From contig CM059431.1 in the NCBI GenBank assembly GCA_030390025.1, forward strand, positions 125,428,001 to 125,492,000: a stretch of DNA of 64,000 nt, given 5' to 3'. Below are positions 1,528-56,634 of this stretch, in pieces (within the stretch, counting starts at the first letter, position 1; each line of letters begins with the position of its first letter). This DNA comes from Squalus acanthias (taxonomy: Eukaryota). Made by a program: the position numbers and the translations under genes. The notes under the pieces were generated by a model. That model searched no databases, was not told where the DNA came from, and was given only the letters and a program-made list of their open reading frames with translations.

Positions 1528-4500
1528 CACCCTTCAAAATAAAGTTCGGGACTTGGAACGTCAGGACCCTCATGGACAACCCCAACAGGGACAGACCGGA
1601 ACGCCATACTGCTATTGTTGCCCTGGATCTCAGACGTTTTGACATAGACATCGCCGCCCTAAGTGAGACCCGGCGGGCAGGGAAGTCCAGCTCAAGGTGC
1701 AAGGCAATGGTTACACCTTCTTCTGGAAAGGCAAGCCTGAAAAAGAACGCCTCCTCCATGGGGTAGGCTTCGCCTTAAAAAATGAGCTAGTTGGACATTG
1801 CAGAGATTCCCCGTGCGGAATAAACAAACGCCTCATGACTCTTCAGCTCACCCTAGCCCGGAACCAGTGCGCTACGGTCATCAGTGCGTACGCCCCAACA
1901 CTGGAAGCTACAGACGAGACCAAAGAGGGATTCTACTCCAACCTCGAACAATCCCTGTCCCGAGTCCCAACGGGCGATAAGCTGATCCTCCTTGGCGACT
2001 TTAATGCCAGAGTTGGAAAGGACACAGACCTCTGGGGAGGTGTGATCGGCAGAGAGGGGGTAGGGAAAGCCAACTCCAACGGTACCCTCCTCCTGACGAA
2101 ATGCTTAGAACATTACCTTGTCATAACCAACACCTTGTTTCGTCAGAGAGACAAGTACAAGGCTTCATGGCAACACCCTTGCTCCAAGGACTGGCATCTG
2201 CTGGACTACGTCATTGTCCGAGCGAGGGACTGCAAGGACGTCCGCATCACCCGCACCATGACAGGAGCTGACGACTGCTGGACAGACCACCGCCTAATCC
2301 ACTCTGTCATCTCCATCAATGTAGCCCCAAAACAGCGGCGGCAACAGAAACAATGCCGCAGGAAAATCAACACAGGAGGACTCAAAGACCCTGCTAAGAA
2401 AGCCCTATTCAGCCTGCACCTCACAAACAACCTGACGACTCCCAGTGATGCAGAGACACAGAGTGTCCACAGCGCCTGGTCTGCACTCAAGGTCTCCATA
2501 ATCAGCACCTGTGAAGAGACGCTCGGTCACTCGACCAGGAAACACCAAGACTGGTTCGATGAGAACAACCAGGAGATCCAGGAGCTAATAGGCCGCAAGT
2601 GCAAGGCATTCCTGATCTAGAAACAGCAACAGAACTCGAGAGCAAGAAAGCAGCTCTACAGACGCCTGAAGGCCGAGGTCCAACAAAAAACTCGCGACCT
2701 AAAGAACAGATGGCGGGTGCAGAAAGCGCAGGAGATCCAGCAGCTAGCCGACAACCACGACGTGCGTGGATTCTTTAGCACAGTCAAGACTACCTACGGC
2801 CCAAGCACCCAAGGTCCTACCCCACTGCGGGCCAAGAACGGAGAGGTACTCATCAAGGACAGAGCGGCAGTCAGTGCCCGCTGGAAGGAGCACTTTGAAG
2901 ATCTCCTTAACCGAGACTCTGTCTTCGACGCGATTGTCCGCAACTCCATCCTGCAGCATGCTACCCACCACCATCTCAGCACAACCCCAGCCCGGCATGA
3001 GCTTGAAAAGGCCATCCGACAACTGAAGAACAACAAGGCCTCAGGAGCAGATGGAATCCCTGCCGAGGCACTAAAGCATGGCGGAGAAGCACTATTGGTG
3101 CGAATACATGAACTCATTTCTCTTATTTGGAAGGAGGAGAGCATGCAGGGGTTCTCAGAGATGCCGTAATCGTGACCATCTTCAAGAAAGGTGACAAGTC
3201 CAATTGCGGTAATTACAGAGGAGTTTCCCTGCTGTCTGCCACAGGGAAAGTCATCACAAGAATCCTCCTCAATTGCCTTCTCCCAGTGGCTGAAGAGCTC
3301 CTCCCAGAGTCGCAATGCGGATTCCGCTCACTAAGGGGCACAATGGACATGATCTTCACCGCGTGTCAAATACAAGAGAAATGCAGGGAACAGCACCAAC
3401 CGCTGTACATAGCCTTCTTTGACCTCACAACGGCCTTCAACACTGTCAACCGTGAGGGATTATGGAGTGTTCTCCTCAAATTCGGCTGCCCTCAAAAGTT
3501 TGTCACCATCCTCCGCCTGCTTCACGATGACATGCGAGCTGTGATCCTGAACAACGGATCCACCACAGACCCAATTCACGTACGGACGAAGGTCAAGCAA
3601 GGCTGTGTCATCGCAGCAACACTCTTCTCAATCTTCCTTGCTGCAATGCTCCATCTCACCCTCAGTAAGCTCCCCGCTAGAGTGGAGCTAATTTACAGAA
3701 CAAACAGGAAACTGTTCAACCTCCATCGCCTCCAGTCCAGATCCAAGGTTGTCCCATCCTCTGTCGTCAAATTACAGTACACAGACGATGCTTGTGTCTG
3801 CGCACACTCGGATGTCGAACTAAAAAAACCATCATCAACACCTTCACCGAAGCGTACAAGAGAATGGGCCTTACACTAAACATTCTTAAGACAAAGGTCC
3901 TCTACCAAACTGCCCCCACCACACAGAACTGCCCCCCGATTATCAAAATCCGCGACGAAGCCTTGGACGACGAAGCCTTGGACAACCTCGGGAGCCTACT
4001 GTCAACAAGGGAAGACGTTGATGATGAAGTCCAACACCGCCTTCAGTGTGCCAGTGCAGCCTTCGGTCGCCTGAGGAAGAGAGTGTTTGAAGACCATGAC
4101 CTCAAACCCAGCACCAAGCTCATGGTCTACAGAGTAGCAGTGATACCCGCCCTCCTGTATGCTTCAGAGACATGGACCATGTACAGCAGGCACCTCAAAG
4201 CACTGGAGGGGTACCACCAACGCTGCCTTCGCAAGATCCTGCAAATCCATTGGCAGGATAGGCGCACCAACGTCAGTGTTCTCGCTCAGGCCAACATTCC
4301 CAGCATCGAAGCTTTGACCACGCTCGATCAGCTCCGATGGACGGGCCACATCGTCCGCATGCCCGATACGAGACTCCCAAAACAAGCGCTCTACTCGGAG
4401 CTCCGACACGGCAACAGAGCCCCAGGTGGGCAGAGGAAACACTTTTAGGACACCCTCAAAGCCTCCTTGAAAAAGTGCAACATCCCCTCCGACACCTGGG

Positions 4501-8758: not shown

Positions 8759-10196
8759 TGTAAGGGATGACCTGCGGCTCTGTGCTTAGCCTGGGTGCTA
8801 GGGCGGGGTTAGGCCTTGTTGCCTGTTCTGGTCTCCAGCCAGCCTGATAACACTAGTCACCTGTGAGTGGTTCGACCCACTCGCCCTTATGGTTCTGACA
8901 CTGGACTTAGGTGCGAGAGCAATAATGCAGAGAAAGACTCAGGTAGACCCGGTTGAATAGTGCGAAATGGAAAATCTTTATTGCATATTATTCAAGATTA
9001 TGAGATACATGTCATAAGCATAGATTAATGACAGTACAATCTTACACACAGTTATGAAACTAATTTTAGGGAAACGAGGAGCGCATGACACATCGTAAAA
9101 GGGGACACACATTATAATTATCCTTAAAACTTAAACCCTCCCCTATCAATACCTGTCCTAATCTAGATTTGTAGGATCGAGACTCATGCTCACCACTCGT
9201 GATAACTCGGAGAATTCCGAAACTCTGCTCGGATGGTTTTACCGCAGCACCTGACTATCCACGTGTTGATCAGGGGTCTCTGTACCCCACTTGTTTACTC
9301 GTTTCTGCTCCGGCTAGCAGGCTGGACCGTCTGCTGTCATGAAGATCTGTGTTGCCCTCGGAGTTCGGACACCACTCGAAAAAGAGTCTTCCTGTGCCCT
9401 ACACCAGTTGCCTGTAGAACTCAAAGAAGGGTCTTCCTAGGCCAGTTGTGGAGTAGCCGATAAAATTCAAAGCCACGAGGTTGATCCTAGCGGATCAGAG
9501 TCCAGAGCCGTCAGGCAAGAGAATAAAAGTTCAGCAGCCTTCCAGCGAGTCAAAGCAGCAAGAGAAAGATGGACGGTTGTACCTTACAGTTATAGTGCTG
9601 TAATTCCTCTTTTCCCACCCAATCTTAATGTCTATCTTTTGTCAGGGTTTTGGCGCTCAAACTTCTTGTATGGGGTGATCTCAGTCTTTAATGGGTTTCG
9701 GTGACACTTATAACTGTCTGAGTACCCATTAATATTTCTCCCATTGTGGAACCGGCTAGTAGTCTCCTTGGAGGGGTTTTGGGGCTTCCAAATGCTTGCT
9801 GTAAGTACCTGCAAACGGCTCTCTCATCGTAGAGCCGTGGTGATTTTGCATATTAATGTCTTTGGATGGGTCCTTGATCGCTCAGTACAATAGCCCTTGT
9901 TTGCACCTGGGAGACCGATTCCAGTATTTATGTTTAAAATGCAAACCCATCATGTCTTGGCAATTATCTCAAATGTGCTGAGTCCTGTTCGATCTTGCTG
10001 AAATGTTTATTGGAACGCCATCTTGTCTGCCCACTGAAAGTCTAGAACTTTCTGCCACGAGGCGTGGCGGCCATTTTACAGGCTGTTTGTGTCCGTTTTG
10101 AAACCTGACAGCATTCTGCTGAAATAAAGCTGTTTGTACGAAACTTTATGTCTCCTTCTTATTTTATAAAATCGCGATAATTTTGCGAATTCTACA
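8759..10196 (-). mobile_element. Solo LTR of the loki-like retrovirus family (divergent variant)
   Basis: Termini TGTAGAATTCGC...ATCCCTTACA (minus strand) as in the provirus LTRs. 4-bp TSD AGGA at 8755-8758 and 10197-10200. Splits the H1 transposase. Confidence 0.92.
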
Positions 10197-16062: not shown

Positions 16063-17380
16063 GTAATCAAGGGCCCATCCAAAAGACATTAATATGTAAA
16101 ATCCCAACGACTCTACGATGAGAGAGCCGTTAGCGGGTAGTTATACAAAACACTTGGAAGCCCCAAAACCCCTCCAGGGAGAACACCGACCGATTTAACA
16201 ATGGGAGAAATATTAACAGGTACTCAGACAGTTACGAGTAGCCCCGAAACCCATTAAGAACGGAGATCACCCATACAAGACATTTGAGCGCCAAACCCAA
16301 ACAAAAGAAAGGACATTAAGGTTGGGCGGGAAACGGAAGATTTTGTACTATAATTACAAGCTCCAACCGTCCATCTCTCTCTTATTCTCTTATCCGATCG
16401 ACTCGTAACCTCGTGGCTGCTCCTGTGTTTTGACTCGTAGTCTTGTTCCTGCTTGCCTGGTGCCTCTTTGAAAAAGACTGTTGAACTTTCTGATCCGTTC
16501 GGATCTACCTCGTGTCGCGTAACGAAGACCTGTATTGGTAACCGGTATCGGAACCAAAGGCCCGAGATGAGATGAGATGAGATGAGATGAGAAGAGAGGA
16601 AGACCATACTCATCGCCACGGTCAGTAAATCCCGACCGCGCCCGTAGGTCGAATAGCCAAGTTTTCCTTGCCAGGAAGACTTCTTTGAACTTGCAAGAAC
16701 GGATTATCACCGATGATATTGACTGGTCTGGATTCGGACAGTGCCTGTTAAACCAACCAACACAGATCTTCATCACAGCAGACGTTCTAGCCTGCTAGCC
16801 GGAGCAGAAGCAAGTAAACAAGTGGGACCAGGAGATCTCCTGATCGACACGTGGGTGCTGCGGTGAAAAACATCTGATCAGCTATTCGGAATTTCTCCGA
16901 GTTATCACGAGTGGTGAGCATGAGTCTCGAATTCCTACGAATCTAGCTAGGACAGATATTGATAGGGGAGGGTTTAAGTATTAAGGATACTTGTAATGTG
17001 TGCCCCTATTTACGGTGTGTCGTTCGTTCCTCGTTTCCCTAGGATCAGCTATATAACTGCTTGTAAGATTGTACTGTCATTAATCTGTGCTTATGACATG
17101 TATTTCGTAATCTTAAATATCATGCAATAAAGATTTTCCATTTCGTACCATTCAACCGAGTCTACATGAGTTTCATCTCCATTACTGCTCTCGCATCTAA
17201 GTCCAGTGTCTAGAACCGTAAGGGCGAGTGATTCGAACCACTCACAGGTGTGTCTAGTGCTCCCAGACTGGCTGGAGACCAGAACAGGCAACAAGGCCTA
17301 AACCCGCACTGACATACAGGCTGCACAGAGCCGCGTGAATCTCACAGGCTGCGAGACACGCAGGGTCAGAATCCCTTACA
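16063..17380 (+). mobile_element. 5'-truncated LTR of the same retrovirus family, very close to the LTR at 54946-56630
   Basis: Aligns to 55263-56630 and ends ...ATCCCTTACA. No PBS follows. About 315 bp of the U3 end and the TSD are missing. Confidence 0.9.
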
Positions 17381-22517: not shown

Positions 22518-23119
22518 GTGTACAAGGCTCAGCAAGACCCAAAAGCTAAAATGTACAGCCTGCCCACTCCTAGATGAACCTTTAAATGCAATGTGGCTAA
22601 GGGTCCTTTAAATATCCCGAGTGGAAATGAGTCATCAATGATGTCATCAGACCCACACCATGTAATAGGGCTGGGAAACACGCTGGCCTGACTTAATAGG
22701 CGCCATTACGGGAAAGTCACTCTGAGGAGCGTAATGAAAAGAACAACGGAGCTGATAAGTCCCCGGGTCCTGATGGACTTCATCCTAGGGTCTTAAAAGA
22801 AGTGGCTAGTGAGATAGTTGATACGTTGGTTTTAATTTTCCAAAATTCCCTAGATTCGGGGAAGGTTCCATTAGATTGGAAAATAGCGAATGTAACTCCT
22901 TTATTCAAAAAGGGAAGGAGACAGAAAGCAGGAAACTACAGGCCAGTTAGCTTAACATCTGTCATAGGGAAGATGTTAGAAGCTATTATTAAAGACGTTA
23001 TAGCAGGGCATTTAGAAAAGTTCAAAGTAATCAGGCAGAGTCAACATGGTTTTGTGCAAGGGAAATCATGTTTAACCAATTTATTGGAGTTCTTTGAGGA
23101 AGTAACATGTGCTGTGGAT

Positions 23120-24716
23120 TGTAAGGGATACTCTCCTGACCCTGCGTGTCTCGTGGCCTGTGAGGTTCACGCGGCTCTGTGCAGCCTGTATGTCAGTGCG
23201 GGTCTAGGCCTGGTCTCCAGCCAGTCTGGGAACACTAGACACCCCTGTGAGTGGTTCGAATCACTCTCCCTTACGGTTCTAGACACTGGACTTAGATGCG
23301 AGAGCAGTAATGGAGATAAAAACTCATGTAGACTTGGTTTGAACGGTACGAAATGGAAAATCTTTATTGCATGATACTTAAAATTATGAAATACATGTCA
23401 TATGCACAGATTAATGACAGTACAATCTTACAAACAGTTATAATCACTCTTAGGGAAACGAGGAACGACCAGCACAACGTAAATAGGGCACACATTACAA
23501 ATATCCTTAAACTTTAAACCCTCCCCTATCAATAACTATCCTAAAACTAGCTTCGTAGGATCCCGAGACTCATGCTCACCACTCGTAATAACTCGGAGAA
23601 AATCCCGAATAGCTGATCGGATGTTTTTCACCGCAGCACCCACGTGTTGGTCAGGAGATCTCCTGGTCCCACTTGTTTACTGCTTCTGCTGCTCGGTCAG
23701 TCGGCTGGACCGTCCGCTGTAGTGAAGACCTCTGTTGGTTGGATACAGGGTATGGTGGAGCACCGTTGTCAATATCGCTGATACGATGTGTTTGCACAGT
23801 CCAGTTATCATCGATGCAATATGTCTTGTTAAAGAAGAAAACTTCCTGTCGAGAAGACTTGGCTGATCGACCTACAGGCGCGGTCGGGATTTACTGACCG
23901 TGGCGATGGATAAGGTCTTCTTCTCTTCTCCTCTCATCTCATCTCATCTCATCCCGGGCCTTCGGTTCCGCTGCCAGCTACCAACATAGGTCTTTGCAAC
24001 AGTCTTTTACCCAGGAGCAGCCACGATGATAACAGCAGCAAGCGGCAAGAGTCAAGAGCAAAAGAGCAAGAGTCACGAACACGAGGCAAGAGAGCGAATG
24101 GACGGTTTGGGCCTGCAATTATAGTGCACAGTTCTTCCGTTTCCCGCCCAACTACAATGTCCATTCTTTTGTTTAAGGTTTGGCGCCCAAAAATGTCCTG
24201 TATGGGTGATCTCTGTCCTTAATGGGTTTCGGGGCTACTCCTGAATGTTTGAGTACCTGTTAATATTTCTCCCATTGTCAAATCGGTCGGTGTTCCCCCT
24301 GGAGGGGTTTGGGGCTTCCAAGTGTCCTGTATAACTACCTGCTAACGGCTCTCTCATCGTAGAGCCGTTGGGAGTTTACATATTAATGTCCTTTGGATGG
24401 GCCCTTGATGGCTTTCCTTTGTACCTGGGAGACCGATCCCAGTATCGATGTTTATACTGTAAACCCATAATGTCCTGTGTATTGTCTTCACTGTGCTGAA
24501 TCGTTATCGATCCTGCAAAAAAATGTTTATTGGAACGCCATCTTGTCTGCCTGCCGAAAAGTCTCGAATGTTCTGTCACGCGGTGCGGCGGCCATTTTAC
24601 AGGCTGCTTGTGTCCAATTTAAACCTGACAGCATTCCGCTGAAATAAAAGCTGTTTTGAACGAAACTTGTGTTTTCTCCTTATAAAAATGAAATCGCGAT
24701 AATTGCGAATTCTACA
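23120..24716 (-). repeat. 3' LTR (1597 bp)
   Basis: Appears identical to 34095-36131 apart from the SINE. AATAAA on minus at 23363-23368. (GAGAT)n microsatellite near 23930. Confidence 0.95.
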
Positions 24717-24728
24717 GTCCCTCCTGTT
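24717..24728 (-). other. Polypurine tract
   Basis: AACAGGAGGGAC abuts the TG of the 3' LTR. Confidence 0.75.
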
Positions 24729-25140
24729 GATGCGAATAACTCCGCTTATCGTATCAAAAACTCAGTGGTGAGCAATCTTATCTCGATTTCACTCCGAATC
24801 CAGTAAATTAATCCCATAAAATTTTAACTTCACTAGGGTCTCTGTGTCGTCCTTATTTCCCAAGAAAATCACACTTTATATCACCATAGGCATCATTTGC
24901 CCTTAAACTTACACCACTTGTTTTCCTTCCCGGCGTAACCAGGCCGATACCTCACGCATCACCTGTATATTTATCTTTTATTCAAGGGAAGGAAAAACAA
25001 AACCCAAAAAACCAAACAATCAACACCATCACCAAAATAAACAAATCCCGACTCTTAAACATGTCGAGTTTCCAACGTATTTACACTGAGTACAAACTTC
25101 CGCGGCGCACGTGGCGAGCGGGAGTGACGCCGTTTTCCCA

Positions 25141-27492
25141 TTACACTGCGCTCTCATCGTGCACGCGCACGTAACGTTCTCGCCACTCTCCCGTGTTCTC
25201 ATGCTTGGTGAGGCGCTTGTCTCTTTTACAATGTATGAACAAAAGGTATACTACAATAAACACTTGACAGACGACTAAAATGTGGGAGGCTATTCTGACC
25301 CATGAGGGCACTTCAATATTCGTGAACAGATTCCACCACGGTGGAACCACTATGTCCAAAATGTCTGTACCTATCTCGACGGTTTTCTGTTCTAATGTAT
25401 AGAAATGCTTTTGTGACACCGCGACGGCTTTCAGAAGTTTGGTTAAATGCTCGGGGAGAGGGGGAATGAGGTACCCAAAATGTGCGACAAATCGCTGCAA
25501 GTCGGTAAAATTCTCTTTTACTGTGAGATGAACAGTGGATGGTTCAGGGATTGGGATAATTCGCTGTTGTGCTACTTGAACTTCAGCCCTGGGTTTAAAA
25601 CAGAAACTGCTGTCACTCACCGGACACCGGCTACGGTTTCCATGCTGGTAGTGTTGCGCTGCAGTGGTAACACAATATGTTCCACCCCCGATGTATGCTA
25701 CCTGCGGAGGCACATGATCTTGTGCCATTGCCTCCATGGTGCAATTCATGGACTTGGCGTCAGCCGTTCTGAACCCGCACTGTGGTGTTAAAAAGGCATT
25801 CAAGTGCTGGGGGCACAGTATTATGTGTGCTCCCCTGCCACGACAACCAGAGAGATCTGTACCTGTCATCGTTTGCTCCCAGCGGATGACGTAAGGTGGA
25901 ACCGCTGCATAACGAATGTGGGCTCCCCCCTGAATGACACCAATGTTCTCTACCCGATATACCGGGGCGGGCTTTGCTGTGTTGCCCAAAACCGGCATGC
26001 GTAATACTATTCCCATAATAGTATGGTTTGAACGTCCGCAGTCCACGGGGACTGGGTAAGCTTCTGAAGCTAGCCTGAGCTGGCACGGACTTAATGCATT
26101 CTGAAAAGGGTGGAGCGCCCGCAGGTGTTTGTTACTTATCCAGGACGGGACCAAACCTTGTTTTAAATCCTCCAAATTACTGCGGCCCTCGCCCAGTAAC
26201 CACGCCCCGTAAAGCACGCACACCTCGTTCTGCGCAGCTTGATCGGATGCATTCCGATCTTCCCTAATCAGGGCATTTACCGTACGCGCATGTTTCTCCA
26301 GCTCTGCTATAATCTCTTTTAAATGTAGTGTCATGGCTTGGTCCTCGTGCAGACCCGACCCTACCACTTTATTCTCATCTGTAAGAATATCCTTTAACTG
26401 TGTTTTTAAACCATTAATCTGGGTCTGCAGCTCCACACTGTCTAGAGCGTTGACCACAGATGTCCCTGTGTTAAAAGCAGTGAACGCATCGTTCACCAAA
26501 CCCCTTCTTTGCCTCCCTACTTGGTCCAAAACTTCCTGCGGTGCGGTGTATAAACTTGTCTTATCGATTTCTGCAAAATCAAACTCGTAAAATTGCCTGA
26601 ACATCTTGGTCAACAGGACCTGGTACAACTGTTCCGTCTTTTTGGGGCACCACTCTGGTAACCGTACCTCAGTGAGATTTAAAATCACCGAGGCCACCGC
26701 GTAATGTACCCCCTGAAATAGTATCTGGTCTGTGGGGACCAGTACCAAACCGTTCCCGGGTCCCTTACTAGTTTTAGGGCACCCTTCTTCCTCAGTTAGA
26801 ACTACCGGAATCGTGGGCGGGGCTTTGCGTGGGCGCGTAATGAGCTCAGTGGCATTTACTGGGATCGGAGAGTATGGGGCTCCGCACCCCCTGGTGCTCG
26901 CATCCCACCTCATCCCCTGTCCGTTATCCTGCCACTGGTTAATAAAGAATATGGAGATGCCTTTGGGGCAAACGTACTTTGACCCCCACATACAAACATA
27001 AATCCCCTCATCTGGTTCCCACCATTTGTCCCAACAGACTTTCACTTGTCCATCTGTCCCCGTAATTGTCCGATGGGTATTATTACCCAGTCGCTCCCAC
27101 TCAACCGAAGAGTTCCTCATAGTTTTGCTCAGCTTTCGCAGCCACCACCATCGGCTCAATGGGACATTCCCACTGCAGGTCAAACAAATCCGTTTGCCGA
27201 CGGTGACGCTGATCCTGGGTGCGATAATCCGTACTTTGGGGCACATTAAAGAAGTCTCTCTGTAGGCGAACCCCGATGTGCTGGAATACTCCGTTGAGTT
27301 CGTTCCCAGCCATCCTGGCCACCTTCCCTTGTGGAAGTAGGTGCTGGTCCCTTCTGCCTTCCGTCTTCCGGTCCCATCCACCGCGATGGGGGCCGTGTCC
27401 CCGGAACATCCAAACACCACGACATCCTTGGTGAGGCCCCGATAGGCCAATCCACATCCGATTGCCACGAGCAAAACTAGAAGTCGTTCCAT
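25141..27492 (-). CDS. env: Envelope glycoprotein, 783 aa, intact: signal peptide, Ig-like domain, F-like class I fusogen, TM
   Basis: Hydrophobic N-terminus, furin site RQRR/GLV (aa 327-330), heptad repeats, Cys-rich region, TM (ILVVCQVFIVVYLLFI), several NxS/T sequons. Candidate splice acceptor TCTATCTGATCACAG|G lies 13 nt upstream of the ATG. Confidence 0.9.
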   Translation of the reverse strand: MERLLVLLVAIGCGLAYRGLTKDVVVFGCSGDTAPIAVDGTGRRKAEGTSTYFHKGRWPGWLGTNSTEYSSTSGFAYRETSLMCPKVRIIAPRISVTVGKRICLTCSGNVPLSRWWWLRKLSKTMRNSSVEWERLGNNTHRTITGTDGQVKVCWDKWWEPDEGIYVCMWGSKYVCPKGISIFFINQWQDNGQGMRWDASTRGCGAPYSPIPVNATELITRPRKAPPTIPVVLTEEEGCPKTSKGPGNGLVLVPTDQILFQGVHYAVASVILNLTEVRLPEWCPKKTEQLYQVLLTKMFRQFYEFDFAEIDKTSLYTAPQEVLDQVGRQRRGLVNDAFTAFNTGTSVVNALDSVELQTQINGLKTQLKDILTDENKVVGSGLHEDQAMTLHLKEIIAELEKHARTVNALIREDRNASDQAAQNEVCVLYGAWLLGEGRSNLEDLKQGLVPSWISNKHLRALHPFQNALSPCQLRLASEAYPVPVDCGRSNHTIMGIVLRMPVLGNTAKPAPVYRVENIGVIQGGAHIRYAAVPPYVIRWEQTMTGTDLSGCRGRGAHIILCPQHLNAFLTPQCGFRTADAKSMNCTMEAMAQDHVPPQVAYIGGGTYCVTTAAQHYQHGNRSRCPVSDSSFCFKPRAEVQVAQQRIIPIPEPSTVHLTVKENFTDLQRFVAHFGYLIPPLPEHLTKLLKAVAVSQKHFYTLEQKTVEIGTDILDIVVPPWWNLFTNIEVPSWVRIASHILVVCQVFIVVYLLFIHCKRDKRLTKHENTGEWRERYVRVHDESAV

Positions 27493-27775
27493 CCTTCCTT
27501 GGTTCCTGTGATCAGATAGAATGAGGTAGCCAGCCTCGCAAAAAGTCTCTGGCTTTTGTGAAGGGTGAGCGGGTCCCCTGACCTCGCCTCACGTAAACTT
27601 CAACGTTTGCTAAATAGACTTCCTCTAAACCTAGCCTTAAAACTCCCATCATTTTATCGTTATCTGTTAAAACACTACAAACTTAACCTTCTTAAAACTA
27701 CTTAAAACTTTAAACTAAAACTTAAAACCTTAAACTAATAACTTTACAATGCCGCCCGTTCTCAGGGCGGCCCCT

Positions 27776-30700
27776 TTAAATCCTGAGAAGGCTGCTGCGA
27801 GCTCTTCCCGACGGTGGGAGGGCACTGACCCTTCCCTCTGATCTGCCGCAGCCTGTTGCTGCGCTGACCCTTTCCTCTGATCTGCCGCAGCCTGTTACTG
27901 CTTCGATGTGGCCTGTCTCTACCCGGGTTATCTTAACCTGAAACTTACGCCCTGGGGCAGCCTGTGGACCTGACCACGTCTTCCTGGGCTGGGGTACTCT
28001 GCTTGACCTACGGGGAATTGCTATGGGCGGGGGCTCCGTGACGGACGGACCGGGTCCCGAGACCTTCAACGGGATGACCTGGGGTTCCATCACAGGCGCC
28101 AGCCCCGCCTCCGCTGACTCCGCCTCCCTAACCTCGGGGCTGGCAGTTCGGGGCCCCGCCCTGCTCGGCCCAGCAGGCGGCCCTTCACTCGCGAACTCTG
28201 CCTCCCCTGAGGACTGGACGTTCAGAGCGGGCGGCCACACCTCTGGGAACCACATAGCGGCTGGCCCGGCCTCCTCTAGCTCCTTCCTCCTGCTGTCGGG
28301 ACCTGCAGCTTGTGTGTCCACCCCGTATGGATCTCTACCTAGCGGCCCCAATCCTTCCAGACCGTTCCTCTGAAACCACCCGTCATCATCACTATGCTCA
28401 TCTGCACTATCCTCATCTGACCAGGGTACCCTGGGGTCCTCGTCATCTAACCCCCAACTCCAGAAAAACGCTGCATGATCGTCCGGGATGTCCCTTCCCC
28501 TGATGCAAGCTGCTACGCCTGCCTGTGTGCCTTGTGGTCCTACCTGGGGCTGTGTTTTCCCATTGGCGGGATTTACCCCTGTAGTTTTCCCTTGCGCACC
28601 CGGCTGGTACAGTTTACATTGGTTTATGTGGAACCACTTAGTGCGCCGAGGTACTTTTACGGCGTAAACCATGGGACTCGCCTTGTCTACAATGTTGTAG
28701 GGTCCCATATACAGTGGTTCCAGACTCCCTACTCTGGCGTAGTTTCTGACCATGACCTGGTCTCCTACTTCCCACTCCCGCGTTTTGCGGGGTTCCAGCA
28801 ACAAGCGATTGCCCTGGTGCTGCCTTCCCATGTTCCCAGCCGCCTGCTCATAAACTTGCTTCAGGCGCTCCAAGAGAGTTTGGGCGAACTTGTCCCTGCT
28901 GATCTCTTGAAGCTGACCCTCAGTGAGCACCGGGGCTAGCACATGGGTGGGGGTTCGCATGAGCCTGCCGGTCATTACCTCGTGCGGGGAGTACCCCGTA
29001 CTTTTTGACTGACTGGCCCGGACCCCCATGAGGACTAAAGGCAGAACTTCCGCCCATTTTTGGGGCGAGTTCCTAGTCTCTTTCCTCAATTTCTCCTTCA
29101 GGGTCCGGTTCATACGTTCAACAATCCCGGATGACTTGGGATTGTGTGCTACGTGCCACTTCCCTTCAATGCCCAAAAGCATGAGGGTGTTCTGCATCAC
29201 CTGGCCGGTGAAATGACTCCCTTGGTCTGACTCCACGAAACGGGGGAGTCCCCACCGCGAGAACACTTCCCGGACCAAGATTTTTGCTGTACCCAGTGCC
29301 GTAGCTGTTCGACAAGGGAAGGCTTCCACCCACTTGGAAAACACATCCACCAGGACGAGGCAGTACTTATAACCTCCCTGGGTGGTGGGCAGGGGTCCTA
29401 TATAGTCGATCTGTATCGACTGCCATGGTCCCTCTACCCTTCTTACGTGTCCCATGGGCACCTTCCTTTTCTGGGGGTCTGGGTTGTTTGCAGCGCACAC
29501 AAGACAGTTTGCACAGAACTCGCGGACTTGTTCCCTGAGCCCTGGCCACCATCCCGCTTGCTCTACCCGTTGCCAGGTAACCTCGGGCCCGGGGTGCCCT
29601 GCCCCTGGTCCCTCGTGAGCCAACTGGAGGAATTCCCTCCTGTGCTGCTGCGGCACAACCCACTGCTCCTCGCGGAACAGCATGCCTTCCTTAACTGAGA
29701 GGGTTGCCGTACTGTACGGACCTTCTACCTGCCTCCCCTCAGCAATCGTTTTTAGGACTGCTTTTAGGGCGGGATCCTGGGCTTGGACGGTCTTAAGGTC
29801 TAGGGGCAATGCTACCCTGGTGTTCCCGGTATTCCCGTCCCCACCTCGGACCGCTGCTATGGGTCCGGTTCTATAGGGGTTCCAGAAAGTACCGTCGCGG
29901 GCACCCTCCCTGGCTAGCGCATCCGCCTGCCGGTTGCCCTCCCCACGGGGCTCTGTGGAGGAGTGAGCTTTCACCTTATGGATGAAAATCTCCCCTTCCT
30001 CCCCTACTGCTGCTGCTAAGATCTTCTCCAGCAAGGGCTTTACCGTTAAAGGTCGCCCGTCCGCGGAGGTGTATCCACGGCGGGACCAAATGGCCAGGTA
30101 TTCCGTACACGAATTGCAGGTGAACATACTGTCCGAGCAAATCGTGTATGGGGTTGGGAAAATGTCTGGGTGGGTTACCACGTACACCACGGCAGACAGC
30201 TCAGCCTGCTGCGCGCTCATGGTGCTAGGGAGCTTGATCGCCAGGGCAAGGTCTGCCGCAGGGTCATAAACTCCACACCCTGTGAGTCGCTCGCCAGCAG
30301 ATACTGTGCTAGACCCATCAACATAAATCTCGCGCCCAGTGGGATGTATCCCGGCCCGTAAACCTATGTTGACGTCCCACACCCCCTCCACCGAACACCG
30401 GTGGGCTGTACCGGGGTATACCAAATTGGCCGCAAGCCTGGGCTCGCAAAGACCTTTTACTCTGATGTCCAACTGGGAGAGAAGAAGGGTCCAACGCGCA
30501 ATGCGTGCGCTGCTTACGGTCCCGTCTTTAATCCTCCCATCCAGAAGCATCTTAGTTGGTGTGTGATGTGTGAGGAGAGTGATGGGAGAGAGCCCTGTGA
30601 AGATCGCTGATCTTTTCACAGCCCAATGCGTGGCTAAAAGGTGCCTTTCGCAATTGGAAAAACTTCTCTCCACATCCGTTAATACCCTGGATGAATAGAC

Positions 30701-32278
30701 AACCGGCCTCAGCTTGCCGTGACGCTCTTGGAGCAGCACGGCGCTTAAGCTGTCTCCGCTGGCAGCTACCTCCAGGAAAAACTCCTTCCCCCCATCTATG
30801 GCCCCTAAGGCTGGCGCGGTCTGCAGATCCCTTTTTAACTTCTCGAAGGCTGCTTGGCAGCCCTCGTCCCAAAGCCACTCTACTCCCTTATGGAGGAGTC
30901 GGAGGAGCGGTGCCGCTGTGGCCGCATAATCCTCGATAAAATCCCTGCAGTAACCGGTCAGTCCCAAGAAGGACCTCACACCCCTTACGTTGTTGGGAAT
31001 CGGTAATTCTTGCACCGACTCCCTCCTTGCTTTGTCTATGGCTCTTTCCCCAGCGCGTAGGGTCAGTCCCAGGAATTTTACTTCCTGCTGACCGATACGT
31101 GCTTTCTTTGGGTTTACTTTAAAACCCTTTCTCGCTAACAGCTCCAATAACTCGTCCAGCAGTGGTCCGTGCTCCTCCCTTGAGTCCGTAAATAGGAGCA
31201 AATCATCCACATACTGTACTATCTGATTGGGCTGACTAAACTCCTTTAAACTTCCTGCCATACACTGGTGAAAAATACTGGGGCTATTGTGGAAACCTTG
31301 TGGCAAGCAGTTCCACGTGTACTGTTGCCCTTTAAACGTAAAGGCAAACTTGTACTGGTCCTCTCGCCGCAGCGGGATGGACCAAAAACCGTTCGAGATA
31401 TCCAGCACCGTGAACGTGGTCGCGGACGCTGGGATGCTCCCTATTAGGTCAGCAACTGCTGCTACTGTGGGCGCGCAGGCGGGGATGTTACTGTTAAGGA
31501 CTCTGTAGTCCACCGTGGCTCTCCACGAATTATCCGGCTTCCTAACCGGCCATAATGGGGAGTTCACGTGTGTGGCTATCGGCCTCAACACGCCCTGCTG
31601 CACCAAGGAAGACATTGCTGCCTCCATATCGGGTTCTGCTTCTTTGGGGAAGTTATACTGCTTTTGGGGTCGGGTCATGGGGTCCCCATCTACGCTGACC
31701 TCAAACCCGACCACCCTCCCACAATCGTGCTTGTGGGTTGCAAACGCGTGCATATTATCTGTCACGTACGTTTGCATGTCCGTTGGGACATCTGCGACCA
31801 TAAGCCTGAGGTCGTAGCCTCCGGATGGCTGTACGGTACACAGGACCCCTGTTTCTTCCTCCCCTTGAATTACCATTACCTCGCCTTTTTCCCCTTTAGC
31901 CCCCCAGAGACAGTGATTTCTGAGGTCCACGAGGATCCCGTGTCCCGCTAGCAGATCGGACCCGAGAATACCTCTTCCACCCCCCTTTTGCCATGCCATC
32001 AGTATACACTTCCACTTAAGGCGAAGTGTCCCTAAACGAATGGATAGCGGGAGGGAAAACGTGCCAGCCTGTTCTTTCCCTGTGAACCCTGCTAGCGTGA
32101 ATGGGACCTTGGTAGATAGCGGCGAGTCAAAAGGGTCATCTGTATGGATTATGGTGCAAGAAGCTCCCGTGTCCAACAAATAACTGCCCTTTTGTTTCTC
32201 TACCTCCATCTCCACCACAGGTCACCTCCACGCATCATAGCTGAGCGGACACAGGTAGACGGGCTGTGCTGGTTCTAG
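27776..32278 (-). CDS. pol: Pol (PR-RT-degenerate RH-RNase H-IN plus long C-terminal tail), in frame with gag. One extra TGA at 32222-32224; open from 32218
   Basis: LLDTGAS; LPQGF, YVDDLL; IYVDGSS/SAQQAEL/CSDS/GNRQAD; HHCC zinc motif; IDYIG, ESDQG, VERMNRTLK; GPY. Confidence 0.93.
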
Positions 32279-34090
32279 TCATGGGGCACTATTAGACGGT
32301 CCTGCGGCACCTACGGGGCCGGTTGCGACCGCCACCTGTCCACGCGCATTCAAAACCATCTTGCGCATGACTCCTAACACTGCCTCGAGGTCTTCGGGAG
32401 AGGTGGGTGCCTTTGCTTCCTTAGCCGGGACAGGCGCCTGGGCTCGGACCGCGGGATTTTTATCCTTGGAATCCTTCCAAGGGTTCCTGCAGTGCTTGCG
32501 CCAGTGCCCTGTCTTCCCACACCCGTAACAGGCATTACTTGCCTGTGGGGCGCGATTACCCTCCTGATGCCACTCTCTTTGAGCCGGGGCTGCGGGTCGT
32601 ACCTCATGTACTCTTCCCTTAAAGGGACGTGTTGCCATACCCCTTATGTTACGGTAACCTAACGTGAGTCGATTCAAGACCGACTCTTCCGTAAGGTTGA
32701 GGTCATTGGGATCGAACCAGGCTTTTGCCTGCTCTCTAACGGCTGGTAAACTGTTGGCTATTATGCACCTAAGCCAATGAATTAAAGCGGCGCCTTCCAC
32801 ATCTTCGCGCTCGGGCGCACCTAGACAGCTGCGCTCATATACTGGCCACAGCCTGTCGGCAAAAACCTTCGGGGGTTCTCCCTCCATCTGCACTGTCTGT
32901 CCCACTCTAGCAAACGGACCTCCGTCGTTCGCTCCCACTACTTCTAGGACCTCATTTTTCAATTCCTCATAACTTTTATTACCCCTCTTGCTATCGCCTG
33001 AGAGACACTGAAGGACCGAGCTATCTAATGAGAACAGCAGCATTTTTGCTGTCTCCCCATCATCGCAGCCGTTGATGGCTGCGGCTTGCTCAACTTCCCT
33101 AAAATGTACGGAAGGGTCGTCTATCTCGGTCAGCTTCCTTACGTGGTTTATCATAGCCCTCAGCTGATGTGAACTGTGAGGCAACACCAGCTGTCCGAGG
33201 AGATCCCCCGGTTCTTCCCCACCGTTTCTGCTTGGGCCCCTTTTAATCCCCGTTACTGGATACAACGATCCCTTTTCTACCTCCTTTTCAACGGGCTCTT
33301 TTGTTTCTTCCGTTGCTTCCTCCCTAACCCAGGTTTCTGAATAGCTGGGTGGCGCGGAGGGCGCAGTGGCTACTACCTCTTCTGCTTTACTTGGTGGGGA
33401 ATTTCTAAATCTCTCATTTACTAGCGGCTGGCGTGCCGACGGATTAATAAGGCACACCATGCCGTTCGCATTATTCACGGCCTTTTTGAGGCTCTCTATC
33501 TCTTTTTCGCAGGCGCTATGGTCGGCTCCCTGAAACTTATCCTCAAGGGCCAACTTATACGCCGACCTAACCCCCATTAAGCTCTCTTCTTGAGTTCTTA
33601 TCTGGGCAGCTTGACGGTTACATCTTTCCTTCATCCTACTCTCGTTTAATTTTGCTTCAGTGATCTGGCACTCGAGATACTCTACCCTTGTTTTAAGGTA
33701 ACTGGAGACTTCCTGGCTTTCCTGGCGTAACTCATTTAAACTCTTAATGAGCGCCTCCCCTCCAGAAACCTTCTCCTCCATTTCCTCCTCTAACTGCTTG
33801 ATTCGAGCGGTTAGCGCTGTATTGGTCTGGTTTGAAATCTGAACCTGCCTTTTGTAGCACATAAGCCAGACTGCTTTCTCAACTGCCTTTTTATGCTCCT
33901 TACTATCCGTCCACCTTTCAGCTGCCTCTAGTGGGCTCTTATCCGCTAACAGTTCGCTTATCCACTTTTTCGTTAGATTAACCTTTCCAAATACGTAATC
34001 CGCTATCTTTTCCTGCATCACATTTCGTACAGTCATTCCAAAATCTAACACACTACCCTCTCGCTGCCAGTGTCCTGCCGCGGTCGCCAT
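32279..34090 (-). CDS. gag: Gag, 603 aa: coiled-coil N-terminal half, late motif, capsid-like region, one CCHC zinc knuckle
   Basis: CYGCGKTGHWRKHC knuckle, PSAPPSY motif, position between PBS and pol. Close paralog at 56635-58443. Confidence 0.9.
   Translation of the reverse strand: MATAAGHWQREGSVLDFGMTVRNVMQEKIADYVFGKVNLTKKWISELLADKSPLEAAERWTDSKEHKKAVEKAVWLMCYKRQVQISNQTNTALTARIKQLEEEMEEKVSGGEALIKSLNELRQESQEVSSYLKTRVEYLECQITEAKLNESRMKERCNRQAAQIRTQEESLMGVRSAYKLALEDKFQGADHSACEKEIESLKKAVNNANGMVCLINPSARQPLVNERFRNSPPSKAEEVVATAPSAPPSYSETWVREEATEETKEPVEKEVEKGSLYPVTGIKRGPSRNGGEEPGDLLGQLVLPHSSHQLRAMINHVRKLTEIDDPSVHFREVEQAAAINGCDDGETAKMLLFSLDSSVLQCLSGDSKRGNKSYEELKNEVLEVVGANDGGPFARVGQTVQMEGEPPKVFADRLWPVYERSCLGAPEREDVEGAALIHWLRCIIANSLPAVREQAKAWFDPNDLNLTEESVLNRLTLGYRNIRGMATRPFKGRVHEVRPAAPAQREWHQEGNRAPQASNACYGCGKTGHWRKHCRNPWKDSKDKNPAVRAQAPVPAKEAKAPTSPEDLEAVLGVMRKMVLNARGQVAVATGPVGAAGPSNSAP
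34072..34089 (-). other. Primer-binding site, tRNA-Arg(TCG)
   Basis: TGGCGACCGCGGCAGGAC is complementary to the 3' 18 nt of vertebrate tRNA-Arg-TCG (…GTCCTGCCGCGGTCG-CCA, recalled from memory). It starts 5 nt after the LTR end. Confidence 0.85.
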
Positions 34091-34094
34091 TTTC

Positions 34095-36131
34095 TGTAAG
34101 GGATACTCTCCTGACCCTGCGTGTCTCGTGGCCTGTGAGGTTCACGCGGCTCTGTGCAGCCTGTATGTCAGTGCGGGTCTAGGCCTGGTCTCCAGCCAGT
34201 CTGGGAACACTAGACACCCCTGTGAGTGGTTCGAATCACTCTCCCTTACGGTTCTAGACACTGGACTTAGATGCGAGAGCAGTAATGGAGATAAAAACTC
34301 ATGTAGACTTGGTTTGAACGGTACGAAATGGAAAATCTTTATTGCATGATACTTAAAATTATGAAATACATGTCATATGCACAGATTAATGACAGTACAA
34401 TCTTACAAACAGTTATAATCACTCTTAGGGAAACGAGGAACGACCAGCACAACGTAAATAGGGCACACATTACAAATATCCTTAAACTTTAAACCCTCCC
34501 CTATCAATAACTATCCTAAAACTAGCTTCGTAGGATCCCGAGACTCATGCTCACCACTCGTAATAACTCGGAGAAAATCCCGAATAGCTGATCGGATGTT
34601 TTTCACCGCAGCACCCACGTGTTGGTCAGGAGATCTCCTGGTCCCACTTGTTTACTGCTTCTGCTGCTCGGTCAGTCGGCTGGACCGTCCGCTGTAGTGA
34701 AGACCTCTGTTGGTTGGATACAGGGTATGGTGGAGCACCGTTGTCAATATCGCTGATACGATGTGTTTGCACAGTCCAGTTATCATCGATGCAATATGTC
34801 TTGTTAAAGAAGAAAACTTCCTGTCGAGAAGACTTGGCTGATCGACCTACAGGCGCGGTCGGGATTTACTGACCGTGGCGATGGATAAGGTCTTCTTCTC
34901 TTCTCCTCTCATCTCATCTCATCTCATCCCGGGCCTTCGGTTCCGCTGCCAGCTACCAACATAGGTCTTTGCAACAGTCTTTTACCCAGGAGCAGCCACG
35001 ATGATAACAGCAGCAAGCGGCAAGAGTCAAGAGCAAAAGAGCAAGAGTCACGAACACGAGGCAAGAGAGCGAATGGACGGTTTGGGCCTGCAATTATAGT
35101 GCACAGTTCTTCCGTTTCCCGCCCAACTACAATGTCCATTCTTTTGTTTAAGGTTTGGCGCCCAAAAATGTCCTGTATGGGTGATCTCTGTCCTTAATGG
35201 GTTTCGGGGCTACTCCTGAATGTTTGAGTACCTGTTAATATTTCTCCCATTGTCAAATCGGTCGGTGTTCCCCCTGGAGGGGTTTGGGGCTTCCAAGTGT
35301 CCTGTATAACTACCTGCTAACGGCTCTCTCATCGTAGAGCCGTTGGGAGTTTACATATTAATGTCCTTTGGATGGGCCCTTGATGGCTTTCCTTTGTACC
35401 TGGGAGACCGATCCCAGTATCGATGTTTATACTGTAAACCCATAATGTCACGGTGGCATAGTGGTTAGCACTGGTGCTTCACAGCGCCAGGGACCCGGGT
35501 TCGAATCTGGACTCGGGCGACTGTCTGTGTGGAGTTTGCACATTCTCCCCGTGTCTGCGTGGGTTTCCTCCGGGTGCTCCGGTTTCCTCCCACAGTCCAA
35601 AAATGTGCGGGTTAGGTTGATTTGGCTATGATAAATTGACCCTTAGTGTTAGGGGGGGATTAAATATGTGGGGTTACGGGGATAGGATGGGATATGTTAG
35701 GGGGAATTAAATACGTGGGGTTACGGGGATAGGGTGGGATATGTGTTGGTGCAGGCTCGATGGGGATTCTGTGTGAGAAAAGCAGGGACAGGGTACTGCA
35801 TTTGGATGATCAGCCATGATCGTATTGAATGGTGGAGCAGGCTCGACGGGCCGAATGGCCTACTCCTGCTCCTAGTTTCTATGTTTCTATGTTTCTATGT
35901 CTTCACTGTGCTGAATCGTTATCGATCCTGCAAAAAAATGTTTATTGGAACGCCATCTTGTCTGCCTGCCGAAAAGTCTCGAATGTTCTGTCACGCGGTG
36001 CGGCGGCCATTTTACAGGCTGCTTGTGTCCAATTTAAACCTGACAGCATTCCGCTGAAATAAAAGCTGTTTTGAACGAAACTTGTGTTTTCTCCTTATAA
36101 AAATGAAATCGCGATAATTGCGAATTCTACA
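34095..36131 (-). repeat. 5' LTR (2037 bp including an inserted SINE)
   Basis: Same sequence as the 3' LTR on both sides of 35450-35900. Confidence 0.95.
35450..35900 (+). mobile_element. tRNA-derived V-SINE (HE1-like) with CR1-derived tail
   Basis: A box TGGCATAGTGG, B box GGTTCGAATC, V-domain TGTGTGGAGTTTGCACATTCTCCCCGTGTCTGCGTGGGTTTCCTCCGGG, CR1 3' UTR and (ATGTTTCT)n tail. Confidence 0.9.
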
Positions 36132-37536
36132 GGATAAAGGGGAGCCGGTGGATGTACTGTACTTAGATTTCCAGAAGGCATTTGATAAGGTGCCACATCA
36201 AAGGTTATTGTGGAAAATAAAAGCTCATGGTGTAGGGGGTAACATATTGGCATGGATAGAAGATTGGCTAGCTAACAGGAAACAGAGAGTAGGCATAAAT
36301 GGGTCATTTTCTGATTGGCAAGATGTAACAAGTGGTGTGCCACAGGGATCAGTGCTGGGGCCTCAACTTTTTACAATTTATATAAATGACTTGGATGAAG
36401 GGACCGAAGGTATGGTTGCTAAATTTGCTGATGACAGAAAGATGGGTAGGAAAGTAAATTGTGAAGAGGACATAAGGAGGCTACAAAGGGATATAGATAA
36501 GTTAAGTGAGTGGGCAAAGATCTGGCAAATGGAGTATAATGTGAGAAAATGTGAAGTTGTCCATTTTGACAGGAAGAATAAAAAAGAAGCATATTATCTA
36601 AATGGTGAGAGATTGCAGAGCTCTGAGATGCAGAGGGATCTGGGTGTCCTAGTACATGAATCGCAAAAGGTTACTATGCAGGTACAGCAAGTAATTAAAA
36701 GCTAATAGAATGTTATCGTTTATTGCGAGGGGAATTGAATACAAAAGTAGGGAGGTTATGCTTCAGTTATACAGGGCATTGGTGAGACCACATCTGGAGT
36801 ACAGTGTACAGTATTGGTCTGCTTATTTAAGGAAGGATGTAAATGCAGTTCAGAGAAGGTTTACTAGACTAATACCTGAAATGGGCGGGTTGTCTTATGA
36901 GGAAAGTTTGGACAGGCTAGGCTTGTATCCGCTGGAGTTTAGAAGATTAAGAGGTGACTTGATTGAAACATATAAGATCCTGAGGGGTCTGGACAGGGTG
37001 GATGTGGAGAGGATGTTTCCTCTTGTGGGAGAATCTAGAACTAGAGGTCACTGTTTAAAAGTTTAAGGCAGAGATGAGGAGAAATTTTTTCTCACAGAGG
37101 GTCGTGAGTCTTTGGAACTCTCTTCCTCAGAGGGCGGTGGAAGCAGAGTCTTTGAATATTTTTAAGGCAGAGGCAGATAGATTCTTGGTAAGCAAGGGGG
37201 TGAAAAGTTATCGGGGGTAGGTGGGAATGTGGAGTAATCGGATCAGCCATGATCTTATTGAATGGCGGAGCAGGCTCGTAGGGCCCAGTGGCCTACTCCT
37301 GCTCCTAATTCGTATGTTCGTATCCCGATCCACCACACCAACCACCCGCTCCCGACCCGCCCAGGTAAAGAAAATTCCGGCCATGGAGTTTGAAGTAGTC
37401 GTAATGAACAGTCAGTTTACTTACAATATGATGAATCACCCCGAATCCTCAAATTTAAAAACAATATGGTCAAATTTAATGATCCTGCCAGGCAGGAAAT
37501 GGGTGGCAGTGGGTTGGCTGCCCAGTTTATACACTG

Positions 37537-54349: not shown

Positions 54350-54945
54350 GGGGTAAAATTTGGGTTGGTTTGTGCCTCTCGTTAGCTCCCCCGGGGGGCG
54401 CTAACAGGGCGCAAATCCCCGAGCGCCTGGGCACGGTGCCACTAATGCCTCCTGCGAAATTCAGCGGGAGGTTAGCGGCAGCGGTCGCCGGTAGCACCCC
54501 GTGGTGCTGCGCCGCCGGCAATGACATCATCGCCATGTGCAACGCCCCGCATGCGCCCCGGCCGCAAACTTCCCTTGTGCCCCCTGACCTATCGCTGGAT
54601 GATATGTCTGACAGCATCAGGGGGCGTTGTTGCAGCGCCGGCAGCACTACTTAAAGGGCAGGTGTTGGGTGGCCATTTTTATTTTGGCTGACTGCCCGCA
54701 CCTGTCTCCTTTCCCTTTTGTATCCGGGGTGCCGGCCGCGTTTGCTCAGCCCGGCACTCCTCTTGAGTGCTGGGCTATTTTCATGGCACCCCACTCCTCG
54801 GTGGTCCAGCAGGGCGCAGCACGAGGCCCCTCCTTTTTAATCAGGGGAGGAGGCCTGTAATGACGCGGCGCAATGTGCCACCACTCGTGGCGCTGTTGCA
54901 CGTAGCGCTGCGATCTTCAGTAGTAGCGCCCCAGGAAGGAGGTGG
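54350..54945. mobile_element. One end of a GC-rich Harbinger-like element, target of the second provirus
   Basis: Starts TTA|GGGGTAAAATTTGG...GCCTCTCGTTAGC, resembling the H5 and 38208-39002 termini. The partner end was not found. Confidence 0.55.
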
Positions 54946-56630: not shown

Positions 56631-56634
56631 GAAA

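Follow-up and report, generated by a model that had tools for sequence, protein, structure and literature searches.

A young provirus with a predicted F-like envelope protein in an elasmobranch genome, placed by its sequence on a deep retroviral branch beside snakehead retrovirus

Retroviruses of the snakehead retrovirus (SnRV) clade ('Huo'; Xu et al., 2018) have been reported from all major vertebrate lineages (PMC6001957), and SnRV-related endogenous retroviruses (ERVs) have been reported from cartilaginous fishes (PMC4422223; PMC6001957), among them the SnRV-clade CmiERV lineage I of the elephant shark (Han, 2015; PMC4422223). Lokiretroviruses, whose envelope protein (Env) is detected by the Pfam family PF00523, are listed from lampreys, bony fishes, amphibians and reptiles, and in the table of the corresponding genome screen none of the three Orectolobiformes genomes was positive (Wang and Han, 2020/2021). 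Here we describe a provirus of 13,012 bp in a 64-kb stretch of Squalus acanthias DNA (contig CM059431.1, positions 125,428,001 to 125,492,000; hereafter the window, in whose coordinates positions are given unless a genome contig is named). It occupies 23120-36131 with all genes on the minus strand, as established by self-comparison, reading of the ends and its open reading frames (ORFs). A sequence-only reading of the same DNA had taken the element for a lokiretrovirus or a relative of one, and this assignment had to be abandoned. Its reverse transcriptase (RT) sequence indicates that it is a canonical (non-loki) retrovirus on a very deep branch, at the base of the sampled retroviruses beside SnRV, and we consider it highly probable that it is a germ-line provirus of a deep lineage common to elasmobranchs and frogs. 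It adds a new member to the deep-branching retroviruses already known from lower vertebrates as neighbours of SnRV.

The cartilaginous-fish host suspected in the sequence-only reading was borne out by RAG1, for which the six best named matches of the genome are all elasmobranch (Heterodontus 90%, Rhincodon 87%, Scyliorhinus 86%, Amblyraja 86%, Hemitrygon 82% and Narcine 82%) and the further matches listed reach 75% or less; judged by this gene, the host is an elasmobranch. The complete reference retrovirus genomes for the placement of the element were taken from IMG/VR. Gamma-type references were labelled by TLV_coat Env (nine Envs, all of which match) and foamy viruses by Foamy_virus_ENV together with spuma Gag families, while the delta, lenti and class II labels are based on genome length and clustering only. 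The SnRV reference has an RT equal to the SnRV row in the supplement of the lokiretrovirus paper and a length of 10,688 nt, which is the GenBank length quoted in the available text of PMC12193657; the reference for walleye dermal sarcoma virus (WDSV) was recognized by its gag-stop context and its 12,708-nt length, both as given in the available text of PMC13517186. The loki reference (positions 2463-3857, minus strand, of a metagenome contig) was found by the motif CPFGYANSP, contains one internal stop and reads like the Loki-Sri and Loki-Sme rows of the published supplement. Since it is near-identical to the fish loki consensus rows there, it is probably fish DNA in an environmental sample. 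An RT was encoded in one of eight metagenome loci retrieved with the loki motif, and a broad Pol alignment search returned no further reference genomes.

The main RT tree, with 57 rows and 277 columns, took its root from 18 Ty3/gypsy rows. The loki reference fell outside a 38-row clade (100/99) that unites the element with all other retroviral rows. Both copies of the family in the window grouped with one Logan protein at 100/100, and this group was joined by three frog proteins named 'NYNRIN-like' and one unnamed protein at 94/88; the resulting seven-row shark and frog lineage was sister (87/56) to SnRV plus the foamy, gamma/epsilon-like and class II viruses. A second RT tree of 43 rows, to which WDSV was added and from which 15 rows were dropped, had the same topology, with a loki-excluding clade of 32 rows at 100/98. 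WDSV, the sole epsilon reference, was found inside an 18-row gamma/epsilon/class II clade (99/99) that excludes the shark and frog lineage, and the foamy RT clade (100/100) excludes the element as well. In a quick whole-Pol tree (36 rows, 975 columns, built without loki) the foamy viruses branched first, followed by the lineage (97), which was sister to SnRV plus the rest (97).

In the approximately unbiased (AU) test, a clade of the lineage with loki was rejected (p=0.0137, log-likelihood difference 24.5), and a clade of the lineage with SnRV was not rejected (p=0.33). The RT motifs point in the same direction: LDISNGFWSI, QY.FAFTF and LPQGFH.SP are common to the element and SnRV, whereas the loki rows of the published supplement read ASGFWTIP, CPFGYANSP and IYVDDIL where the element has LDISNGFWSI, LPQGFHNSP and QYVDDLL. 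The possibility that the element is a lokiretrovirus, or the closest relative of one, in a shark is largely refuted, and we assign it a very low probability, even though several features are common to both. Lokiretroviruses also have a class I Env that is F-type by fold, a dual RNase H and some copies with identical long terminal repeats (LTRs), and frogs, which are known loki hosts, carry relatives of the element. On the other hand, lokiretroviruses differ in their RT clade, in the PF00523 match of their Env and in the possession of an smc-like gene. The Envs of the loki supplement showed no evident likeness to the Env of the element in a comparison by eye.

The same tree bears on an Env-bearing Ty3/gypsy element of the errantivirus type, which we regard as the least credible of the alternatives. 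F-type Env is known in errantiviruses (available text of 10.1101/2023.10.26.564294), and the best single match of Pol in the Protein Data Bank (PDB) is Ty3 Gag-Pol. However, RT phylogeny, which the sequence-only reading had proposed as a check, does not place the element inside Ty3/gypsy but apart from all 18 gypsy rows at 100/99; moreover, Pol has a tether and an added RNase H, and no chromodomain was found. The tether and second RNase H are common to all retroviruses and do not discriminate among them. Of the traits of spumaretroviruses, the element shows neither an RT within the foamy clade nor a Foamy_virus_ENV match, and its Gag has a zinc knuckle.

SnRV is one of the nearest described counterparts of the element. 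In both, gag and pol lie in one frame with a single stop between them, Gag combines a coiled coil at the N terminus with a single CCHC knuckle (24% identity over 191 aa of the coiled-coil part, E 4e-4 in a small comparison set), and the primer-binding site (PBS) is that for a tRNA-Arg, with ACG in SnRV versus TCG in the element. Homology extends to their Envs, for which Pfam has no family. SnRV differs in that it is not the sister of the element in the trees and is only 32% identical in Pol. The gag stop reads UGA-CUA in the element versus UAG-GGC in SnRV, the Env has 783 aa from its first Met (815-codon frame) versus an open frame of 1,134 codons, and the LTRs of 1.6 kb count as a further difference. 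SnRV has a 3'ORF, while no sense-strand ORF of at least 100 aa was found between env and the 3' LTR of the element. WDSV and walleye epidermal hyperplasia virus (WEHV) resemble the element in their gag-pol readthrough layout and in the YVDD motif of RT; the Env of WDSV is homologous by profile, and the predicted Envs of both viruses are structural matches. WDSV stands apart through its RT, which belongs to the separate 99/99 clade, and through an Env open frame of 1,229 codons versus 783 aa (815 codons). WDSV carries cyclin-type accessory ORFs, which the element lacks.

The env gene (25141-27492, minus strand; 783 codons from the first Met within an 815-codon open frame) encodes a predicted signal peptide, a surface subunit (SU), a furin site, an F-like core, heptad helices and, after the membrane anchor, a short tail. 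The furin site RQRR corresponds to Env residues 359-362 (window 26503-26514), and there are ten N-X-S/T sequons. A motif scan found no C-x6-CC and Pfam no TLV_coat match, which supports the view, already taken in the sequence-only reading, that Env lacks a gamma-type transmembrane subunit (TM) and is not gamma-type. PF00523 was not matched at E<=0.1 by the Env or by any of 12 family members, nor was PF03408 (Foamy_virus_ENV) matched by the Env; searches of Pfam families and PDB sequences returned no family and no match apart from weak immunoglobulin (Ig)-type rows with E near 1. Relatives were found in protein searches, three by a word index, in which skate and sawshark matches appeared, and 49 by an exhaustive search. 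Cluster look-up covered nine Env relatives and one Pol relative (P0007, Logan); names exist for seven of the former, and these seven all come from sharks or frogs (Mustelus, Chiloscyllium, Heterodontus, Scyliorhinus, Pelodytes, Mantella and Xenopus).

An AlphaFold2 (AF2) model of the Env, built with the alignment of these relatives, had 232 Foldseek matches in the PDB at E<=1e-3, the best being the F protein of human parainfluenza virus 3 (1ztm, 1.5e-11), and the best 50 rows listed were all paramyxo- or pneumovirus F proteins. Alignment of the model with Nipah F by VIA-align gave Z 12.1 and a root-mean-square deviation of 4.9 A over 286 residues, covering model residues 277-690. The matches among predicted viral structures were mononegavirus F-like glycoproteins, baculovirus F, paramyxovirus F0 and the Envs of WEHV-1 (1.8e-11), WDSV (4e-9) and feline foamy virus. 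In an ESM-feature search the TM half of Env was nearest to the PF00523 and Baculo_F clusters (0.93), which could be taken in favor of a loki affiliation. Modelling thus shows the Env as a predicted furin-cleaved class I fusion protein, the core of which (residues ~277-690) would have the paramyxovirus/pneumovirus F fold, in agreement with the F-like layout that the sequence-only reading had described. As in these F proteins, the modelled core fold lies on both sides of the furin site, which is followed by a hydrophobic peptide, a long heptad helix, another heptad helix and a membrane anchor. Unlike them, the Env has no sequence-family match, carries an N-terminal extension of ~220 residues (possibly Ig-like) before the F2-like part and is encoded by a retroviral gene.

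Profile comparison showed that the Env is homologous in sequence to those of WDSV (hhalign 96.6%, E 6e-10, 457 columns) and, with moderate strength, SnRV (82.4%, E 1e-5, 337 columns); the negative controls, a foamy Env and a gamma-type Env of MLV length, gave 15.9% and 4.4%. Neither the SnRV nor the WDSV Env has a Pfam family. Because the fold is common to the predicted WEHV-1, WDSV and feline foamy virus Envs, and because of the profile homology to the WDSV and SnRV Envs, an F-like Env is not a marker of lokiretroviruses, and the homology itself argues against a loki affiliation. A resemblance of foamy virus Env to F has reportedly been seen in recent cryo-EM work. In the available text of the literature searched, no paper was found that calls epsilon- or SnRV-type Envs F-like.

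The stronger profile match of Env to WDSV (96.6%) than to SnRV (82%), taken with the exclusion of the RT from the WDSV-containing clade (99/99), might suggest a recombinant with the pol of a basal lineage close to SnRV and an env acquired by capture from a virus resembling the epsilonretroviruses. We think this unlikely. The SnRV Env matches too, so that the Env type may be ancestral to these lineages, and hhalign probabilities against single sequences are not distances. Furthermore, both types, that of pol and that of env, are present in the frog relatives, which implies that the pairing is old.

In the SU part of Env, window 26944-27306 (residues ~95-215) shows the Ig hallmarks of a Cys-Trp-Cys spacing and a D/E-x-G-x-Y-x-C motif, and one shark relative is named 'Ig-like domain-containing protein'. 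An Ig_3 match was obtained for three of 14 Env family members (best E 0.0085), and antibody and JAM rows of the PDB had E near 1; an Ig-like domain in SU is possible on this weak support. The N-terminal 215 residues of SU were modelled poorly (mean pLDDT 44.6).

The provirus itself is very young, structurally complete and damaged. Window self-comparison revealed two direct repeats of 100% identity, 23120-24474 versus 34095-35449 (1,355 bp) and 24483-24717 versus 35898-36132 (235 bp); reading of the ends showed that the matching base 24717/36132 lies outside the LTR, which has TG...CA termini. The LTR pair, whose alignment had been proposed in the sequence-only reading, therefore has no substitution across 1,589 aligned bp (1,355 + 234), in line with the youth and structural completeness claimed there. 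The identity of the LTRs stands, whereas their size of ~1.6 kb applies to the 3' LTR alone (23120-24716, minus strand, 1,597 bp). The 5' LTR (34095-36131, minus strand) matches it except for a short interspersed element (SINE) and measures 2,037 bp, because this 448-bp insert replaces 8 bp. Zero differences in 1,589 LTR bases correspond to a 95% upper bound of ~0.4-4.3 million years at rates of 2.2e-9 to 2.2e-10 per site per year, the low rate being that assumed for a chimaera in the available text of PMC4422223.

The element is flanked by a target-site duplication GGAT, read directly and identical on the left (23116-23119) and on the right (36132-36135), which agrees with the 13-kb element and 4-bp duplication of the sequence-only reading. 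On either side lie the consecutive, in-phase halves of one RT frame of the long interspersed element (LINE) type on the plus strand, 22700-23119 (RVT_1 profile positions 5-55) and 36136-36705 (positions 71-199, 1.4e-20), and for this reason a clean insertion fits. The host tRNA-Arg(UCG) serves as primer of reverse transcription, and integration duplicated 4 bp inside the LINE RT gene. The family would have amplified in this germ line until very recently, presumably by reinfection or retrotransposition.

Two lesions distinguish this copy. An in-frame TGA (32224-32222, minus strand) interrupts the N-terminal part of the protease, 19 codons past the gag stop and just before the LLDTGAS motif. Over 321 bp, a single base separates this copy from each of the 39 other scored copies; in all 29 fetched siblings the differing base is window 32224 and the protease codon is open, as it is in the second window copy, and the stop is private to this copy. 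The other lesion is the SINE in U3 of the 5' LTR (35450-35897, plus strand), so that the phrase 'possibly one mutation from intact' in the sequence-only reading understated the damage. The insert has a tRNA-like head and a short tandem tail at its end, together with box motifs that we take to mark a tRNA-derived SINE. Since the LTR-SINE junction 30-mer occurs once in the 3.71-Gb genome and the second copy of the family in the window (54937-62317) has no SINE in its LTR, the SINE arrived after the integration. Its family must have been active very recently, given that the LTRs of the host provirus have no substitutions.

A 30-mer of env occurs 1,918 times in the genome with up to two mismatches, against no occurrence of a control. 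All 40 scored env DNA matches were full-length at a rounded identity of 100%, and all 55 scored env protein matches were open across the 815 codons. Between this copy and each of the 29 siblings there are 4-25 mismatches per ~3.3 kb. Ten siblings with top env matches on large contigs were sampled. Both LTRs lay at their expected positions in seven of them; for each of the remaining three, one LTR was missing from its expected position. None of these seven LTR pairs has a substitution, and four are fully identical. The 4-bp duplications differ from sibling to sibling and match in five of the seven pairs as extracted, and in a sixth after correction of an inferred one-base offset.

These numbers might in principle reflect segmental or tandem duplication, or redundancy of the assembly, and not retroviral amplification. 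On contig C1, at ~115.39-115.56 Mb, env and PBS words reappear every 19.4 kb and three env matches are spaced 19,389-19,390 bp apart; there, proviral copies were multiplied through tandem duplication of a larger block. Many matches also lie on small contigs. As a general explanation, duplication nevertheless seems improbable to us, somewhat more so than recombination, because the duplications match in five of seven siblings (a sixth after the correction) with a different word each time, the present copy has its own duplication GGAT, and copies are spread over many large contigs. An older, 3'-truncated copy and several LTR fragments in the window testify to a longer presence of the family. The truncated copy (54937-62317, plus strand) is 94% identical over 6.3 kb and contains a 5' LTR, gag and a pol with an in-frame stop at 61498-61500; its similarity ends near 62317, and it has no env and no 3' LTR. 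LTR-like family fragments at 16063-17380, 8774-10196 and 54937-56630 (79-94% identity) suggest older insertions or solo LTRs.

Several points weigh against the placement and history preferred here, a deep non-loki retrovirus that amplified recently. The trees contain a single loki reference, namely the metagenome contig with one internal stop, and lack Odin elements, published ERVs of the SnRV clade and an epsilonretrovirus other than WDSV. The order among the lineage, SnRV and the rest is weak (87/56 and 89/80 in the RT trees), and the whole-Pol tree comes from a quick search; the lineage may therefore lie inside the SnRV clade or next to it. The claim of an F fold is limited by a mean pLDDT of 59 for the Env model, in which the core alone is confident. 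As to the copies, the sampled siblings were drawn from the highest-scoring matches, which favors the youngest, the copy counts derive from word and first-look searches, and not all copies are independent integrations, because some lie in the array of 19.4-kb period.

The correction of an attractive loki label shows that an F-like Env does not identify a lokiretrovirus, and it bears on a question raised in the lokiretrovirus paper, namely whether an F-type Env was already present in the common ancestor of retroviruses. We also document that a retrovirus with intact env amplified very recently and on a large scale in a cartilaginous fish; in a screen of 2,004 genomes for ERVs with identical LTRs, no cartilaginous fish is singled out in the available passages (PMC10435555). 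A host that evolves slowly and carries thousands of near-identical proviruses might represent a natural system for the study of germ-line invasion and its control. Tentatively, and with more doubt than confidence, we suggest that the retrovirus is still invading or amplifying in the shark germ line at an unusual scale (~1,900 env words, at least 55 open env frames) as a rare env-keeping 'superspreader', and that its Env belongs to one F-type stock with those of WDSV/WEHV, SnRV, foamy viruses and lokiretroviruses. High-copy ERVs are said to lose env as a rule. If a single F-type stock existed, the F-type would be the ancestral retroviral envelope and the gamma-type a later replacement. The F-type Env and the very large env-intact copy number merit follow-up.

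From stop to stop, the minus-strand ORFs of the provirus measure 620 aa for gag, 1,481 aa for pol and 815 aa for env. The gag gene (32282-34036, minus strand) has an uncertain start codon, its frame being open from 34141; its product contains an N-terminal coiled-coil region and a single CCHC zinc knuckle, CYGCGKTGHWRKHC, with weak matches to nucleocapsid-type knuckles. The gag terminator UGA (32279-32281, minus strand) is followed by CUA, with pro-pol in the same frame, and it is present in all 29 fetched siblings and in the second window copy. UGA CUA is a listed type II readthrough context (available text of PMC13517186), and pro-pol would be expressed by readthrough of the stop codon, as in gamma- and epsilonretroviruses and SnRV. 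The 145 nt from the gag stop showed no excess of RNA structure (z = +1.04; 176 of 200 shuffles folded as well).

The domains of Pol, all on the minus strand, agree with the sequence-only reading, which had noted a YVDD RT, two RNase H-like domains and an integrase with a GPY motif. The RT core with QYVDDLLL (31058-31546; PF00078, RVT_1, 9.6e-36) is followed by the tether, a degenerate first RNase H-like domain (30473-30871; PF17919, RT_RNaseH_2, 2e-21; PF17917, RT_RNaseH, 4.6e-18), and by the true RNase H as second domain (29900-30331; PF00075, 2e-19). The integrase (28607-29656) comprises an H2C2 zinc-binding part (PF17921, 1.6e-17), an rve core (PF00665, 5.5e-15) and an SH3-like C-terminal part with GPY, over which the SH3-type match PF24626 is weak (4.6e-4, below its cut-off). 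In PDB sequence searches the best solved relative of the integrase was that of prototype foamy virus (5e-33), and RT-RNase H was about equally near to murine leukemia virus (MLV)/XMRV, foamy virus and Ty3, which is not decisive. Beyond GPY, pol extends for ~275 codons (27776-28606) as an acidic, proline-rich segment with a short tandem peptide repeat at its end and without any Pfam match; the Pol proteins of the frog relatives are shorter overall (1,212-1,331 aa versus 1,481), and the extension may be an extra domain or an accessory product.

A polypurine-rich tract (24717-24730, minus strand; reverse complement ...AGGAGGGAC) adjoins the 3' LTR upstream on the sense strand and is assigned from its position as the putative polypurine tract. 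The PBS (34072-34089, minus strand) begins 5 nt past the 5' LTR and is complementary to the 3' end of the host tRNA-Arg(TCG). The bare 15-nt PBS word led to a tRNA gene in none of eight sampled loci, and the tRNA was found once the T-loop was added: the 20-nt pattern of T-loop plus acceptor has 435 sites in the genome, at which ARAGORN calls tRNA-Arg(tcg). On genome contig C26, at ~38.99-41.88 Mb, tRNA-Arg(TCG) and tRNA-Ser(GCT) genes occur in long tandem arrays with a period of ~1.6 kb. Much of the window is duplicated, with ~8-22 kb corresponding to 40-56 kb at 75-88% identity.

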